DNA of 10,909 bases, taken from contig JBBIJQ010000022.1 of assembly GCA_037445915.1 (NCBI GenBank), forward strand, positions 1-10,909, given 5' to 3'. The stretch's first letter is position 1. Every line of letters begins with the position of its first letter. The notes below the pieces were generated by a model. The model ran no database searches. It was not told the origin of the DNA and saw only the letters and a program-made list of their open reading frames with translations. This document shows positions 2,538 through 10,907 of this stretch, piece by piece. Source of the stretch: Planctomycetales bacterium (lineage in GTDB: Bacteria; 4484-113). Position numbers and translations under genes: made by a program.

Positions 2538-3299
2538 CTAGGGGAAAGAACGCTCGCAGTGGATTACCTTGCCGCAGATATGTAGCTCTCCCTGGCATTC
2601 CGGCGAAACAGCCAGCGGCTCGTAGCGGCTGTTGCAGGGCTGGAGGATGATGAGTTCGCCCTGCGCGACCACGCGCTTGATACTGTACTCGCCCCCGTTC
2701 AGGCGCACGACGCAAATATCCCCGCTTTTCCACTGGCTGCGCGGGCTGACGACAACGATGTCGCCTTCTAGGATTCCCGCATCCGCCATTGAATCGCCGT
2801 GAACCCGCAACGCGTATGCGCCTGCGTCACCACGCAACCGGCTTTCGTGGATGTGGGCACTCTCGCAGTCGTTTTGCGGCAAAGACTCCGCTGCCGCCAC
2901 GCCAAACGATGCCGGCACGCTGGAAAGCAGCGGAAGGCTGCGAAACTCACCTGTGCCAGCATCGGCGGCTTGGCGGGTAAGCTCGCCCGCCACTTCCCAG
3001 AGCCGTTCGGCGATTGCGCGCTGCCGCTCGTGGCTCTGCGCAGCTCCGCTGATTTCCTCGGCTACGCCGCAGTACCCAGAGGCCGAGAGGAGATCTGCGT
3101 AGCTTATGGCGGGAAGCGCCTGCGTCAGCCGTTTCAAGACAAGCAGGCTGGGACGGCAAATGATGCCACGCTCAATTTGGGACACATACGAGTGCGACAC
3201 GCCAATTCTCTTAGCCAATTCTCGCGCCGAGCACCCAAGCGCGAGTCTCCCCCGGAGCACAATCTCGCGTAGTGAATTAGCAATTGCTGTTTCCTTCAT
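2538..3299 (-). CDS. XRE-family HTH plus S24 peptidase domain repressor (LexA/phage cI-like)
   Basis: N-terminal XRE HTH (SARELAKRIGVSHSYVSQIERG...PS); C-terminal S24 domain YALRVHGDSM (Ser170) GILEGDIVVV...YSIKRV (Lys208)...LQPCNSRYEP...ICGKV. Confidence 0.9.
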   Translation of the reverse strand: MKETAIANSLREIVLRGRLALGCSARELAKRIGVSHSYVSQIERGIICRPSLLVLKRLTQALPAISYADLLSASGYCGVAEEISGAAQSHERQRAIAERLWEVAGELTRQAADAGTGEFRSLPLLSSVPASFGVAAAESLPQNDCESAHIHESRLRGDAGAYALRVHGDSMADAGILEGDIVVVSPRSQWKSGDICVVRLNGGEYSIKRVVAQGELIILQPCNSRYEPLAVSPECQGELHICGKVIHCERSFP

Positions 3300-3307
3300 C
3301 GTGTTAT

Positions 3308-3336
3308 ATTGTATAATAATAGGCGTATTATGTCAA
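3308..3336 (-). promoter_or_regulatory. Sigma-70-type promoter for the XRE-S24 repressor
   Basis: Minus strand TTGACA (3336-3331), 17-nt spacer, TACAAT (3313-3308), ending 8 nt before the ATG at 3299; AT-rich island in GC-rich DNA. Confidence 0.75.
3316..3331. promoter_or_regulatory. Candidate operator palindrome
   Basis: ATAATA-GGCG-TATTAT inverted repeat occupying the -35/-10 spacer; a second palindrome TTATA-TTG-TATAA at 3304-3316 covers the -10. Confidence 0.45.
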
Positions 3337-3375
3337 GCAACAAGGCGGCTGCGTTTGTTTCGCGCTGGAATACCT

Positions 3376-3624
3376 ATGGATAAACGTGATGCAGAGATTC
3401 TTATAACTCACCTCCGCCGGGTGGTGCGCAACTTCGCTCTTTATGAAGCTGTCGCCACCGGCGCATGCACGATTCCCGATCTTGCGCAACGGATAGGCAT
3501 GACTGCCGCAAGCTTGCGTGTTAAGCTTGCGCGGGCGCGGAACGCCGCAAAAGAGGAGCTTGCGGGCATTGGCCTAAAGGAAGTATTGCCGGATGAGGAA
3601 ACTCAACGCGAAAGCTTGGACTGA
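3376..3624 (+). CDS. Small (82 aa) HTH protein resembling sigma-70 region 4
   Basis: ATG at 3376 inside ORF 3106..3624 (MDKRDAEILITHL...). TIPDLAQRIGMTAASLRVKLARARNAAKE resembles ECF sigma region 4.2 (xxEIAxxLGxSxxTVKxRLxRAR). Fills the gap divergent from the repressor; TATAAT at 3312-3317 on the + strand. Confidence 0.6.
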   Translation: MDKRDAEILITHLRRVVRNFALYEAVATGACTIPDLAQRIGMTAASLRVKLARARNAAKEELAGIGLKEVLPDEETQRESLD

Positions 3625-4586
3625 GCATCAAGGGCGGCGTTGACCTCCGCGTCAGCTGCGGTGTTTTCCTCGCGCGGAACCAGCATCAGGCGCAGCCTAG
3701 GAATCTCCGCCATCTCGCTTAGTGCTTGGCGCGCCAGCTCGCGCAGGTTCGCGTCCTTTACTTTATACGATCCAAGCAACTGGTTGTAGATGAGGCTGGA
3801 ATCGGTTTGCAGGATGATGTGATGCCTGCTTGCCCCGCGCTCCCTGAGCAGCCGCAGCGCAAGGAGCACTCCCTTGTACTCAGCGACATTATTGGTCGCC
3901 CTGCCAATGAACTCGGTTCGGGAATAAGTTTCTCCAGCCGGATCACGCACCAGCGCGGCGGCAGCCGCAGGGCCTGGGTTGCCCCTGCTTCCGCCGTCCA
4001 CGCTTACAAGAAACGCGCCTTTGGGTATTGCGCCTTTGTGCTCCAGCGGATGCTTCTCTAGCGCCAAGGCGTCTTTTGCCCTCCCCTGCCGGCGCGCCGC
4101 AAGCTTGCCCAGCACCAGCGCATACGCAGCTATGGCGCGGCCTTCGCCGATGTCGCCCATGCCTTCAAAGCTGCGCGCCTTCACGCTTACGCAGGCTTCG
4201 TCTAGTTTCAGCAGCTTTGCCACGCGCGTGCGTATAGCTTCGTAATGCGGCGACAGCTTTGGCGCCTCTGCGAGGATAGTAATGTCTGCCTGCTGCAGCG
4301 CCAGCCCGGCTTTAGCGGATAGCGCGCATGCGCGGGAAACGAGGTCTGCGCTGGGAGTATCGCCAAACAATCCTTCGCCGGGCGGGAATTGCACGCCGAT
4401 GTCGGGCAAGCCTGAAGCGGCAAGTATCGCGTCTATGAGCGCGTGGAGGACAACGTCGCCGTCGGTTTCAGAAGCAAGCCCGAAACTAGATGGAATACAC
4501 ACCCCGCCGAGCATCAGCTTTGCCCCCGGCTTCGTTCTATGGATGTCAAAGCCACTCCCGATGCGCATCCGCGCTTCTTCAGGCAT
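3603..4586 (-). CDS. ispF: Fusion protein: 2-C-methyl-D-erythritol 2,4-cyclodiphosphate synthase (IspF) + ribonuclease HI domain
   Basis: aa ~7-160: MRIGSGFDIH, LMLGGV, DGDVVLHALIDAIL, DIGVQFP, PKLSPH, VSVKA, EGMG (IspF). aa ~191-320: VDGGSRGNPGP, ATNNVAEY, QTDSSLIYNQLLGSYKVK, VPREENTAAD (RNase HI). Single uninterrupted ORF directly after ispD. Confidence 0.9.
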   Translation of the reverse strand: MPEEARMRIGSGFDIHRTKPGAKLMLGGVCIPSSFGLASETDGDVVLHALIDAILAASGLPDIGVQFPPGEGLFGDTPSADLVSRACALSAKAGLALQQADITILAEAPKLSPHYEAIRTRVAKLLKLDEACVSVKARSFEGMGDIGEGRAIAAYALVLGKLAARRQGRAKDALALEKHPLEHKGAIPKGAFLVSVDGGSRGNPGPAAAAALVRDPAGETYSRTEFIGRATNNVAEYKGVLLALRLLRERGASRHHIILQTDSSLIYNQLLGSYKVKDANLRELARQALSEMAEIPRLRLMLVPREENTAADAEVNAALDAQSKLSR

Positions 4587-5295
4587 CGCCCATCTCGCCT
4601 AAATATGCTTCCGCGACGGCGAGATCAACGGGGAACGTAATCTTGATATTGCTTCGCTCGCCGGGCACTGTAACCAGCTTGTAGCCGCCTGCAATAAACG
4701 CGCTGCCGTCATCAGTGTAACGGTCGGCTTGCTGGCCGAGAATATCCCTAACCATCCTGTATTCCGACGTGATAAACCCCTGCGGGGTCTGCACGAGCAT
4801 CAGGTCGGCGCGCGGGATGTAGTTTTCCGGCTTGCCCTGCGCATCTCCGCGGAGGATGGAGTCTGCGGGGCTGACAACAGGGACTACCCCTAAGCCGGGC
4901 CTTACCGCATCTATGACCCGCCGGTAAAGGGCGGGGGTGGCAATCGGCCTGTCCGCGTCATGGATGAGCACAATCCGGCACCTGGTGCGCTTCAATGCAA
5001 GGCCTACCGATGCGGAACGGCTGTTGCCTCCGTCAACAATTTCAATGCTCGCAGGGCTTTCAACCGACTTTTTAGCCGTATCCAACACTTTCTCAATTTC
5101 CGACCGCAGGAGCGCATTGCATGCGATTACTACTTGGTCTATGAAAGGCATGGACAGCACAGTGCCGATTGTGTACGCGATTAGCGGTCGGCCCCTAATC
5201 AGCGAAAGCAGCTTTGGCACCGTCATCCCGAAGCGGTTGCCTACTCCTCCTGCGAGTAAAATAACGCAAACATCGCTTTTTTCGTTGGCTGCCAT
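4579..5295 (-). CDS. ispD: 2-C-methyl-D-erythritol 4-phosphate cytidylyltransferase
   Basis: LLAGGVGNRFG...PK, GGNSRSASV, VLIHDADRP, QTPQGF, TDD, NIKITFPVDL; lies between yacL and ispF. Start is ATG at 5295 (or TTG at 5298); overlaps the ispF start by 8 bp. Confidence 0.9.
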   Translation of the reverse strand: MAANEKSDVCVILLAGGVGNRFGMTVPKLLSLIRGRPLIAYTIGTVLSMPFIDQVVIACNALLRSEIEKVLDTAKKSVESPASIEIVDGGNSRSASVGLALKRTRCRIVLIHDADRPIATPALYRRVIDAVRPGLGVVPVVSPADSILRGDAQGKPENYIPRADLMLVQTPQGFITSEYRMVRDILGQQADRYTDDGSAFIAGGYKLVTVPGERSNIKITFPVDLAVAEAYLGEMGDA

Positions 5296-5307
5296 CAACG
5301 AATCCCA

Positions 5308-6489
5308 TTATACATGGTCTTTTAGCACTTTGCGGACGCGGCCAAAAATTAGCCTGCCCGCGACAGTCTGCATGATTGAAGTTACTTCAATATCGCATAC
5401 GCTGCCGATATGCCGGATGCCCTGTTCAATTACGACCATCGTCCCGTCGTCAAGGTATCCAACGCCCTGGCCGGATTCTTTCCCTTCGCGGATAACGCTA
5501 ACGATTAGCGTTTCGCCGGGTATTACCATTGGCTTTACCGCGTTGGCAAGCTCGTTGATGTTCAGGACGCGGATGTCGCGGATACCAGCAACGCGGTTTA
5601 GGTTGTAATCGTTGGTGACGACTTCGCCGCCCAACTCTTCGGCGATGAGCATCAGCCGCTCGTCAACCGACACTTTTTCGTGGTCATAACCTGTATCGTC
5701 GTAGATGTGGATAGGGTTTGGCGCGGTTTCCTGCAGGTTCTTGAGAATCTCCAGGCCGCGCCGCCCTTTAAGCCGTTTGATTTGGTCTGCAGAATCGGCA
5801 ACAAGCTGCATCTCGCGAACAACCGAATTGGGCACGATGAGGAGCCCTGGAATAAATCCGCTGCGGAGAATCTCCGTGATGCGCCCGTCAATGAGGACTG
5901 ATGTGTCCAGGATGCGCGGGCGTATGTCTATGTTGTAGCGGGAGAGGATGCTCTCGCGGCTGCTCTGCGGGTAAAAAATGTTTGTCGCGATAAAGCTGCC
6001 CAGGTAGCCGAATGTCAGCAGGAACAGCGCGTTGAGGAGCACCAGCACAAACTCTGAGTTCCAGAAGCTCCTGGGAAGGCGGCTCAGGTAGAAGAACAGC
6101 GGAATGTTCGCTAACAGAAACGACAGAAGAATCCCGCCGAGGAATCCCAGCGAGCCTGCAACGAAGCGCTGGCGCGTTATGCCCCGCAGCTCGCGCTGAA
6201 CGCCTTTGCTCAAGGCGGTGAGCCCCATCTCCGCTAGCGGCGCGAACAAGTATCCAAAAACGAAGCCGCAGAGTATCAGCACATAGCCGAAGCTGCGCAG
6301 GTCGCTCATGTTGGCGGCAACTTCCTTGCCTTCCTGGAAGAGCGGCGGGATGGTGTTTGAGTACTCTGCGAGGATATTTCCCCAATCCGCTATGGGCTGG
6401 CCAAAGAGGCTGGAGACGTAGAATGCAACAGCCGCGCCGAGCATTCCTCCAACTATTGATGAAAACAACCGTGCAACAAGTCCTCTCAT
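5308..6489 (-). CDS. yacL: Membrane-anchored PIN/TRAM domain protein (YacL family)
   Basis: N-terminal TM helices; PIN motifs ILDTSVLIDGRI, VVREMQ, GRRGLEIL, VDERL, VTNDYNLN; TRAM domain EGKESGQGVGYLDDGTMVVIE...QTVAGRLIFG. yacL-ispD-ispF order is as in Bacillus subtilis. Confidence 0.92.
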   Translation of the reverse strand: MRGLVARLFSSIVGGMLGAAVAFYVSSLFGQPIADWGNILAEYSNTIPPLFQEGKEVAANMSDLRSFGYVLILCGFVFGYLFAPLAEMGLTALSKGVQRELRGITRQRFVAGSLGFLGGILLSFLLANIPLFFYLSRLPRSFWNSEFVLVLLNALFLLTFGYLGSFIATNIFYPQSSRESILSRYNIDIRPRILDTSVLIDGRITEILRSGFIPGLLIVPNSVVREMQLVADSADQIKRLKGRRGLEILKNLQETAPNPIHIYDDTGYDHEKVSVDERLMLIAEELGGEVVTNDYNLNRVAGIRDIRVLNINELANAVKPMVIPGETLIVSVIREGKESGQGVGYLDDGTMVVIEQGIRHIGSVCDIEVTSIMQTVAGRLIFGRVRKVLKDHV

Positions 6490-8510: not shown

Positions 8511-9266
8511 CTACTTCCCCGGTATCTCTTCCTTGAAATCCGCGCTTCCGGCGCCGGCCATGCGCTTGTGGAACAGGAGGAACATCCCCGCGAGCAATAT
8601 CGGCACGCCGAGAATCAGCGCAAGCAAGATAAGCTGGAGCGGCGATTCCGCGCTCATGTTTTTCGTGATGAGGATGATGTAGCCCATCCCCAGCAGCAGG
8701 AACAGCGCGCCTGAAAGCTTGGGCATCCAATGCGCCACAACCGTGACGAGGATGATGAGCAGCGGCACGAACATTTGCGGCGTCAAGAAGTAGCCCTCCA
8801 GCGTCTCCATTAGCGCGATTAGCCCGCCGACCGTGTAGCCGATGATTAGCGAGAGAAGGCGCGTGTCGTAAGTGAGCGCGAGCGAGGCGAAAAACTTGTA
8901 GAGAATGGGGACGGTGAGCAGGATGAAATACTCCGGCTCAAGCTCCTTGCCCTTGAGTATCGTGCGCGCGATGAAAACCGCCGTGATGACGAGCATGGTC
9001 ACGTAAAACGCGACGTGGCTGCTGCGGTATGAGATGAAGCTTATGCGCTCGTCGCGCTCGTCAAGCAAGCCCACTTCGCGCACCAGCGGCCCCGCGAACG
9101 CGAGCGCAACGAGTATGAGCAGGAACGCGGGGTTGAGCGCCAGCGCGAGGACGATGGCGATGATGCCGATGACCACCATCACCCAGTTATACACGGTCAT
9201 TTTGCGCAAGCGCTCCAGCGCCTGCGACTTGATTGCGTCAGTAAGCTTTTCCGGTTTCGCCATCAT
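8511..9266 (-). CDS. Polytopic membrane protein of unknown function
   Basis: 251 aa with about 8 hydrophobic helices; DERDER...SSHVAF segment recalls DUF2178-type proteins; GGAGG Shine-Dalgarno upstream of ATG ATG. Confidence 0.8.
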   Translation of the reverse strand: MMAKPEKLTDAIKSQALERLRKMTVYNWVMVVIGIIAIVLALALNPAFLLILVALAFAGPLVREVGLLDERDERISFISYRSSHVAFYVTMLVITAVFIARTILKGKELEPEYFILLTVPILYKFFASLALTYDTRLLSLIIGYTVGGLIALMETLEGYFLTPQMFVPLLIILVTVVAHWMPKLSGALFLLLGMGYIILITKNMSAESPLQLILLALILGVPILLAGMFLLFHKRMAGAGSADFKEEIPGK

Positions 9267-9293: not shown

Positions 9294-9683
9294 TTACTTC
9301 GCAGTTGTAGAAGTATCCCGTTTAGGCGGCAGTTTTGTAAAGAGGAGCGCGAGCCCCGCCAAAGTCACCGGCGCGACAATAAGCCCTAAAACGTATATGT
9401 TCAGCTTATTGAACTGGTTGAAGAAGACCGCAAAGACGCATCCCGTCGCAATGAGCAGCACGCCGCCGGTTATCGGCCACCGCCATGCCACGTAGGTAAT
9501 GGCGAGGAGCACCAGCCCGGGCATGAGCGTATGCATGAACGTGCCGATAATCCCGCCGCCCTCGGCAATGCCGCTTGCTATGCCGAACCACGTCCAAAAC
9601 AGCCCCGACAGCAACACGATACCTAGGAAGACCATCCTAACGATGTAGAGCACAGGCAGCTTCGTTTTCTTTGTTGCTTCCAT
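9294..9683 (-). CDS. Small 4-TM membrane protein of unknown function
   Basis: Likely start MEATKK (ATG at 9683) preceded by GGAGAGGGA; 129 aa, four hydrophobic segments. Confidence 0.75.
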   Translation of the reverse strand: MEATKKTKLPVLYIVRMVFLGIVLLSGLFWTWFGIASGIAEGGGIIGTFMHTLMPGLVLLAITYVAWRWPITGGVLLIATGCVFAVFFNQFNKLNIYVLGLIVAPVTLAGLALLFTKLPPKRDTSTTAK

Positions 9684-9739
9684 TTCCCTCTCCTTACGGC
9701 CACCGCCGCGCACGATGAATACTATCCGCGTGGAGTGAT

Positions 9740-10049: not shown

Positions 10050-10907
<858 letters not shown>

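Follow-up and report, generated by a model that had tools for sequence, protein, structure and literature searches.

Why should a bacterium build its only type 1 ribonuclease H (RNase HI) into an enzyme of isoprenoid synthesis? This question is raised by a gene in a stretch of 10,909 nucleotides (the window: positions 1 to 10,909 of contig JBBIJQ010000022.1, assembly GCA_037445915.1, a Planctomycetales bacterium of the GTDB phylum 4484-113), in which one open reading frame (ORF) joins IspF, the 2-C-methyl-D-erythritol 2,4-cyclodiphosphate (MEcPP) synthase of the methylerythritol phosphate (MEP) pathway, to an RNase HI domain. IspF enzymes have their active sites between subunits and must therefore work as homotrimers. 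The task of RNase HI is to remove R-loops and primer RNA; how a small RNase HI without a hybrid-binding domain finds and holds its substrate is, to our knowledge, poorly understood. We propose, with moderate confidence, that the fusion is bifunctional and that its IspF trimer doubles as a scaffold on which the RNase HI has come to depend. Part of the evidence comes from eight relatives in which the MEP pathway and the zinc site of IspF are gone and the fusion persists.

Two enzyme domains in one open frame

The fusion is read from the minus strand, with its ATG at 4584-4586 and its stop codon at 3603-3605; the plus-strand frame across 3603-4586 contains many stops. Its parts are as follows.

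3603..4586, minus strand: coding sequence (CDS) of the IspF–RNase HI fusion, 327 aa and stop, Pfam domains in one open frame
4110..4568, minus strand: IspF (MEcPP synthase) domain, residues 7-159 (Pfam YgbB, NCBIfam TIGR00151)
4545-4547, 4539-4541 and 4443-4445, minus strand: codons of the zinc ligands D14, H16 and H48, read directly
4011..4109, minus strand: linker, residues 160-192, 33 aa (8 K/R, 3 D/E, 7 A)
3615..4010, minus strand: RNase HI domain of the RVT_3 subtype, residues 193-324 (Pfam RVT_3 and RNase_H)
3996-3998, 3879-3881, 3801-3803 and 3651-3653, minus strand: codons of the catalytic residues D197, E236, D262 and D312, read directly

A first-pass annotation of this DNA had described a 327-residue frame with both domains and had named these seven residues; the frame was confirmed, on the minus strand, and every residue was found at the position given. 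Its description of the linker as about 30 residues long, basic and rich in alanine holds for this protein and does not extend to the relatives, whose linkers are acidic or much longer.

Both domains were recognized well above the family cut-offs. Pfam YgbB/IspF (PF02542) matched residues 7-159 over profile positions 1-153 of 155 (E value = 7.6e-47, 160 bits, cut-off 26.7), and NCBIfam TIGR00151 (ispF) scored 145.7 bits (cut-off 116.45). The ungapped match to the solved IspF chain 1jy8 (query 7-159, chain 1-153) places D14, H16 and H48 at chain positions 8, 10 and 42, which we take to be the zinc ligands D8, H10 and H42 of Escherichia coli IspF. In the C-terminal half, Pfam RVT_3 (PF13456) matched residues 196-317 over profile positions 2-122 of 123 (E value = 1.7e-15, 57.4 bits, cut-off 21.6), and RNase_H (PF00075) matched residues 193-272 (E value = 8.4e-7, 29.7 bits, cut-off 25.8). 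Solved RNase H chains matching the fusion by phmmer were 3u3g (E value = 1.2e-23), 3hst (2.1e-21) and 4e19 (1.5e-15), with 2ehg/3aly and 4h8k as further chains matching this half by sequence; the alignments to solved RNase H chains cover 129-132 residues (E values from 1e-23 to 2e-21). D197, E236, D262 and D312 align with the conserved D/E/D/D of 3u3g, 3hst and 4e19, and the residue opposite D262 is D in 3u3g and N in 4h8k. All seven named residues are unchanged across an alignment of 23 fused homologues (38-82% identity). The IspF and RNase HI halves both look catalytically intact, and from these residues we infer both enzyme activities.

The RNase HI subtype is the one proposed in the first-pass annotation, that of mycobacterial Rv2228c: the NCBIfam model for RNase H/acid phosphatase (NF005567/PRK07238) matches fusion residues 192-324 with its positions 4-136 of 378 (E value = 5e-32), and PDB chain 3hst matches with an E value of 2e-21. 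The fusion lies outside that full-length family (111.7 bits, cut-off 326), and Pfam found no phosphatase domain in it. It likewise lies outside the family of bifunctional IspDF enzymes (NF006899/PRK09382; 160.3 bits, cut-off 417, model positions 222-377).

An AlphaFold2 (AF2) model of the fusion had a mean predicted local distance difference test (pLDDT) score of 88, with about 90 for the IspF domain, and a predicted template modelling (pTM) score of 0.54. The modelled IspF half superposes on solved IspF (target-normalised TM score 0.92-0.96, root-mean-square deviation 0.8-2.2 Å, 154-162 columns) and also matches the chains of IspDF. The modelled RNase H half (pLDDT 86-96) shows the expected order of its five strands and four helices, in which three strands and a helix are followed by one strand, two helices and a final pair of strand and helix. 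The RNase H fold call rests on the sequence matches and on this modelled order, the Foldseek matches listed being IspF chains. Linker residues 166-177 have pLDDT values below 50. Because of this, and of the pTM of 0.54, the two domains are confidently modelled while their mutual orientation is not fixed, and the tether between them looks flexible in the model.

Integrity of the frame

The source is a metagenome-assembled genome (MAG) of 120 contigs and 1.79 Mb, 90% complete. This origin is the only, and a general, caution on the side of an artefact, in which two separate genes would have been joined through an overlooked stop, through a frameshift or by chimeric assembly. We checked the frame in contigs from four DNA runs of one study, with the source sample possibly among them; the runs listed for this stretch include none of RNA. 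The contigs of the four runs span 3500-4700 with zero insertions or deletions and are unbroken in two runs; in run X1, 4109-4147 falls between two contigs, with no single piece across. The contigs carry 15 substitutions within the CDS (8 synonymous, 7 nonsynonymous), none of which introduces a stop or touches a catalytic residue, and these contigs show neither a stop nor a frameshift in the linker, where the first-pass annotation had considered one. Nor were separate genes found in close relatives, a further doubt raised there: both domains share one open frame in 23 of the 24 genomes of the phylum, and in the 24th (G003) the gene is split over two contig ends. Furthermore, 37 public protein clusters have the YgbB + RVT_3 architecture. 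An artefact is already refuted as far as sequence data allow, and we regard its probability as negligible.

A rare architecture, fixed in one phylum

The fusion was matched in 24/24 genomes of the phylum (4 families, 13 genera), a recurrence well beyond what chance would give. RVT_3 and PF00075 each have exactly one match per genome, always at the fusion; these profiles found no further rnhA. A whole phylum thus ties its only RNase HI to a trimeric metabolic enzyme.

We also searched two protein collections. In a word-indexed search of 5.8 billion proteins, the 37 YgbB + RVT_3 clusters ranged from 99% down to 38% identity; their public names are only 'IspF', or 'ribonuclease HI' for one fragment, and among their source labels are 'Candidatus Riflebacteria bacterium' and 'Planctomycetales bacterium 4484_113'. 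When 1.84 billion representatives at 50% identity were searched exhaustively with HMMER, 87 matches had E < 1e-30. Among the 37 of the best 150 matches that were domain-scanned, 19 besides the query's own cluster were YgbB + RVT_3, and one (P0262) was YgbB with a canonical PF00075 RNase HI. The architecture is therefore rare overall (about 20 clusters at 50% identity among those 37 scanned matches) and fixed in the phylum, which answers the first-pass concern that it might be common. A contig search with the fusion alignment returned, among the matches listed, 80 loci that were all single-domain IspF or RNase H; this search is uninformative on the fusion outside the phylum, and its 61 IspF loci were used for the gene-order counts below.

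We rejected candidate reverse-order or triple fusions (matches of 480-930 aa with an N-terminal RNase H), which by Pfam are tandem RVT_3 repeats without IspF (P0131, P0133, P0139, P0142-P0144, P0150, P0171, P0180 and P0209). As a separate observation, RVT_3-type RNase HI is also fused to tryptophan 2,3-dioxygenase (TDO, PF03301; dozens of clusters), glyoxalase (PF00903), PhzF (PF02567) and NIF3 (PF01784), and tandem arrays of two or three copies exist as well, some of them with a SAP domain (proteins P0046-P0121 and P0131-P0209). It looks like a promiscuous fusion module.

Relatives without the MEP pathway keep a dead IspF domain

In the genome that carries the window, the fusion is the sole YgbB match and the sole RVT_3/RNase_H match. 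Dxs, Dxr, IspD, IspG and IspH are present, the IspE-like match scores 84 bits (below the cut-off of 138.7), and a profile search found no HMG-CoA reductase. With its MEP genes present and these copies the only ones, the organism therefore looks like an MEP user that has its only IspF and its only RNase HI in one protein. RNase HII is encoded on another contig.

Eight genomes of family f2 differ: G009 (genus g6), G012-G013 (g8) and G014-G018 (g9), of which G016 is a single 4.1-Mb contig. Profile searches found no IspG, IspH, Dxr or Dxs in any of the eight, and HMG-CoA reductase, detected in 8/24 genomes of the phylum, is found in exactly these. These searches indicate that the eight relatives have exchanged the MEP pathway for the mevalonate pathway. 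Single markers are missing from some MEP-bearing genomes (IspH in G001, G004 and G007, which are 62-78% complete; Dxr in G021; Dxs in G004), and HMG-CoA reductase is absent from G001, G004, G007 and G021.

The zinc site of IspF followed the pathway. In the MEP-less genomes the first ligand is replaced in 8/8 (by E, A, S or Q), the second in 7/8 (G014 keeps His) and the third in 8/8 (by R or Q), and the DIG and K...E motifs of IspF are altered as well. All three ligands are kept in the 15/15 MEP-bearing genomes examined (the N-terminal piece of G003 was left out of this alignment), and the sister genus g7 (G010 and G011) has kept both the pathway and the ligands. The dead IspF domain is nevertheless still full length and still fused to RNase H, and none of the four acidic residues of RNase H varies in the 22/22 aligned genomes; G003 and G017 stand outside this alignment, and both show the motifs elsewhere. 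The loss of pathway and zinc site is a natural knock-out; the tie between the two domains therefore outlives the metabolism.

We then compared the ratio of nonsynonymous to synonymous substitution rates (dN/dS; Nei-Gojobori, own script) for the two domains. In lineages with a live IspF it was 0.04-0.14 for both. The five g9 pairs that exclude G017 gave 0.09-0.21 for the dead IspF domain. Between the three MEP-less genera the dead domain retains 31-45% identity over 151-157 columns, and the RNase H domain 58-67%. Taken with the higher values given below for other pairs, the dead IspF domain is relaxed yet still constrained, that is, under purifying selection.

The dead domain is also predicted to trimerise. 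A predicted complex of three copies of the G016 domain scored 0.91, against 0.02 for the best of three controls; the mark of 0.91 was reached by 20/30 proteins solved as one-chain pairs and by 1/23 solved as single chains, a calibration whose set-up differs from three copies and from the supply of our own alignment. The trimer runs share at least 89% of their contacts, with a partner pLDDT of at least 88.

An unfused IspD-like gene is likewise kept upstream of the fusion in the MEP-less genomes. Its Pfam IspD scores are weak (50.7 bits in G016 and 25 bits in G009, vs 146.6 bits in the window). In our own alignment of the g9 and g6 proteins, the residues corresponding to K27 and K213, which we take to be the catalytic lysines of E. 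coli IspD, are replaced. The dN/dS of the IspD-like gene in g9 (0.07-0.25) is on par with that of live IspD (0.15-0.23). As a further feature, the IspD(-like) proteins of family f2 (L017:3850-4734 of G016, L021:3687-4448 of G009 and others) share an internal insert, and their conserved C-terminal tail has KYGGLGW as its last residues; insert and tail occur also in the MEP-bearing genus g7.

These relatives bear directly on a suggestion made in the first-pass annotation, in which isoprenoid flux, through MEcPP, was coupled to R-loop processing. In such a scheme the ligands of the IspF site (CDP-ME 2-phosphate [4-diphosphocytidyl-2-C-methyl-D-erythritol 2-phosphate], MEcPP or cytidine monophosphate) or feedback ligands of the trimer cavity would tune the tethered RNase H and so tie isoprenoid or oxidative-stress status to the removal of R-loops or primers. 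The circumstantial points that speak for it are the fusion itself and its recurrence, the intact IspF site in the window's own genome, and the position of the RNase HII gene, rnhB, about 2.6 kb from dxs in the 7/7 genomes of family f1 that have both on one contig. However, the eight relatives still carry the fusion although both the MEP pathway and the zinc site are gone, and what is retained in them cannot therefore be the sensing of a ligand; the model predicts no fixed domain interface (pTM 0.54), and the linker ranges from about 27 to about 100 residues. The suggestion is left unsupported by the variable linker and by these relatives, and we consider it very improbable.

The linker varies among relatives in sequence and charge as well as in length. 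Its dN/dS is 0.36-0.89 in families with a live IspF and 0.0-0.14 in genus g9. The idea that a basic linker binds nucleic acid was dropped, as the charge is not conserved. In the fusions of family f2 (e.g., L017:4743-5846) the linkers are 80-100 aa long and carry a conserved motif, LPxRAxxFExA...LPPLP, immediately ahead of RNase H; no Pfam family matches them.

A second, independent fusion

P0262, labelled 'Spirochaetota bacterium' by one source, belongs to a group of ten clusters of MAG proteins (P0262 and P0268-P0276, the nine further ones at 45-59% identity) in which a canonical PF00075 RNase HI follows IspF. Its RNase H scores 134 bits against PF00075 and has 32% identity over 82 residues to the domain in the window. 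In a tree of 69 RNase H domains, 8 PF00075-type fusions formed a clade (SH-aLRT 95) nested among 15 unfused canonical relatives, and they were split from 28 RVT_3-type fusions and their 18 relatives by a branch of length 1.31 with 100% support. As to whether the 28 RVT_3-type fusions form one clade, the quick tree needs 5 changes, with the starred branches forcing at least 2 and with one long branch. At the one P0262-type locus recovered, an alpha/beta hydrolase gene lies upstream and short-chain dehydrogenase/reductase (SDR) genes and RNase Y lie downstream, with no ispD or PIN/TRAM gene within 3.5 kb. The other RNase H subtype, the fully supported split and the other gene context together indicate that this fusion arose independently.

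Gene neighbourhood

Two genes upstream of the fusion, on the same strand, recur with it.

4579..5298, minus strand: ispD (MEP cytidylyltransferase), directly upstream of the fusion (Pfam IspD, E value 1.2e-42, 146.6 bits)
5308..6489, minus strand: PIN/TRAM-domain gene (YacL-like), upstream of ispD (weak Pfam matches: TRAM, E value 3.7e-4; PIN, E value 6e-3)

The stop codon of ispD overlaps the ATG of the fusion by 8 nt (ATGCCTGA). In 22/22 loci examined, the frame immediately before the fusion is IspD(-like), and a PIN/TRAM homologue lies upstream of IspD in 22/22 loci reaching that far, that of the window included; the loci of G003 and G013, broken by contig ends, were left out of the PIN/TRAM count. 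Among the 61 IspF loci listed in the contig search, the usual neighbour of ispF is ispD (35/61) and RNase H is not a usual neighbour. The order PIN/TRAM-ispD-ispF occurs in 3/61 of these unrelated loci (L041, L042 and L052, all Clostridia-type MAGs by title). In Bacillus, too, the order is yacL-ispD-ispF (B. subtilis gene names).

This arrangement would fit a broader reading, which we hold to be distinctly unlikely: that IspD and IspF form the structural core of a nucleic-acid-processing complex, that the PIN/TRAM-IspD-IspF::RNase HI cluster encodes one such complex, and that a membrane-anchored PIN/TRAM RNase and the only RNase HI are held on the IspD/IspF scaffold. If true, it would explain why IspD-like and IspF-like constrained pseudoenzymes survive the loss of the MEP pathway, why two independent IspF–RNase HI fusions exist, and why the yacL-ispD-ispF order is widespread in other bacteria.

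Downstream of the fusion lies a LexA/CI-like gene (HTH_3 and peptidase S24 domains; 2538-3299, minus strand), which is the downstream neighbour in 9/9 loci of family f1 and in none of f2 to f4. Within the listed ORF 3106-3624, an 81-aa ORF (3379-3624, plus strand) converges on the 3' end of the fusion and is divergent from the LexA-like gene. Its CII-like helix-turn-helix match is weak (E value 0.003, below the cut-off); the ORF is kept in f1 relatives and may encode a small regulator paired with the LexA-like repressor. Elsewhere in the same genome (G000:C9:18101-22300, outside the window), dxs, a weak Rce1-like ORF, rnhB (RNase HII) and obg follow one another in this order. In the 7/7 f1 genomes having both genes on one contig, dxs and rnhB are about 2.6 kb apart on the same strand; they are 59-63 kb apart in genus g7 of f2 and on different contigs in f3. 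In f1, therefore, both RNase H genes adjoin MEP genes, which may be a coincidence. Three further genes of the window are unrelated to the fusion: an N6/N4 DNA methylase (10050-10850, minus strand; PF01555, E value 1.5e-64), a DUF7670 protein (9294-9713, minus strand) and a 251-aa multi-pass membrane protein without a Pfam family (8511-9266, minus strand).

Scaffold or passenger

Under the scaffold proposal, the N-terminal half would be a live IspF that makes MEcPP from CDP-ME 2-phosphate in a complete-looking MEP pathway, and the C-terminal half a live two-metal RNase HI, the cell's only type 1 RNase H, on a flexible tether of about 30 residues. A trimer of the fusion protein, as the first-pass annotation had envisaged, is plausible; we infer it for the window's own protein, and an IspF trimer with flexible tethers would yield a particle with a trimer core displaying three RNase H heads. 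The IspF body would then be more than a passenger: a platform for oligomerisation, perhaps docking to IspD. What the platform gives the RNase H could be avidity on hybrids, stability or a place beside IspD and the PIN/TRAM protein; trimerisation, through avidity or placement, is presumably what the RNase H needs. MEP-less lineages would accordingly keep a dead IspF on a live RNase H because the RNase H needs the IspF platform.

The alternative that deserves most attention is that the fusion is neutral. Two unrelated housekeeping enzymes would have been joined once in the ancestor of the phylum, by the loss of a stop codon or by a rearrangement, would act independently and would be kept together by drift; a dead IspF would survive since a clean deletion sparing promoter, start and translational coupling is unlikely. 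We judge this reading rather unlikely. In its favour, the linker is variable and modelled with low confidence, no confident packing of domain on domain is predicted, and the dN/dS of the linker is 0.36-0.89 where IspF is live. RVT_3-type RNase H has been joined to many unrelated enzymes (TDO, glyoxalase, PhzF, NIF3), and the evolutionary rate of the dead IspF domain is 3-5 times that of the RNase H domain. Set against this, the dN/dS of the dead domain in close pairs (0.09-0.21) is well below 1; the domain is full length, with a confidently predicted IspF fold and trimer; the separate IspD-like gene is kept at a dN/dS of 0.07-0.25 in the MEP-less genomes; and the second, independent joining of IspF to RNase HI involved a different RNase H subtype and a different gene context. 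The MEP-less relatives and the second fusion weaken the first-pass version, in which neighbouring genes fused neutrally, as does the fact that RNase H is not a usual neighbour of ispF.

Several observations weigh against the scaffold proposal itself. In more diverged comparisons the dN/dS of the dead IspF domain points to modest constraint at best, with 0.47-0.66 in the four pairs with G017 and 0.58 in the g8 pair, and that of the RNase H domain is lower in the same pairs (0.03-0.07 in g9 without G017, 0.11-0.19 with G017 and 0.42 in g8). The eight MEP-less genomes probably represent a single loss event and thus come close to n = 1. Because IspF trimers have already been solved, the trimer prediction may show likeness (memory) only. 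Retention of the dead domain could partly reflect the need of the RNase H for an upstream open frame and a start codon; this argument does not cover the retention of the IspD-like gene, since that is a separate gene. Stand-alone enzymes of this subtype exist (3u3g and 2ehg, chains of 140 aa), so the RNase H fold has no inherent need of a scaffold. Finally, the authors who studied the mycobacterial RNase HI–CobC protein concluded that its domains are dissociated in function and that drift fixed the fusion (PMC7466739), a judgement that also speaks for a neutral fusion here.

If the scaffold proposal is right, the phylum is a clean case in which an enzyme becomes a pseudoenzyme scaffold; it may also offer a multivalent RNase H and a hidden physical link of IspD/IspF to RNA/DNA processing. 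There is also a practical consequence: as public annotation says only 'IspF', the RNase HI goes unannotated and MEP-less members are wrongly credited with an IspF enzyme.

Comparison with known systems

In the literature searched, from whose coverage most subscription journals fall outside, we found no description of an IspF–RNase HI fusion, and likewise nothing relevant on the PIN/TRAM and ispD genes or on isoprenoids in Riflebacteria. The combination of the two is new; fusions of RNase HI to a metabolic enzyme (Rv2228c) and fusions of IspF (IspDF) were already known.

The mycobacterial RnhC (Rv2228c/MSMEG_4305), an RNase HI–CobC-like acid phosphatase, has the same RNase HI subtype as the fusion (PRK07238, 3hst). 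Like the fusion, it combines a metabolic enzyme and RNase HI in one chain with a variable linker, as described in PMC7466739. The two differ in order, RNase H being N-terminal in RnhC and C-terminal here, and in the partner, which is a histidine phosphatase in RnhC and IspF here. Moreover, functional dissociation and drift were the verdict on the RnhC fusion, whereas the fusion described here keeps its partner domain even when that domain is dead.

In bifunctional IspDF (Campylobacter jejuni 1w55/1w57; Helicobacter pylori 8xhu/8xkf), IspF is also a fusion partner and its trimer organises a second enzyme. That partner is the pathway neighbour IspD and is N-terminal, whereas here a nuclease with no part in the pathway takes the C-terminal place and IspD has its own gene upstream.

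Stand-alone RNase HI enzymes of the RVT_3/archaeal type (3u3g/4h8k, 140 aa; Sulfolobus tokodaii 2ehg/3aly; haloarchaeal 4e19) share the fold and the four acidic residues with the fusion. They are single-domain proteins or have a short N-terminal extension, whereas the domain here is tethered to a trimeric enzyme and is never free in the phylum.

The P0262-type fusions have the same order of IspF, linker and RNase HI and the same size (321-339 aa at full length) but a different RNase H subtype. The Firmicutes PIN/TRAM (yacL-like)-ispD-ispF arrangement has the same three-gene order as the phylum; IspF there ends after about 160 residues, whereas in the phylum the same chain runs on into an RNase HI.

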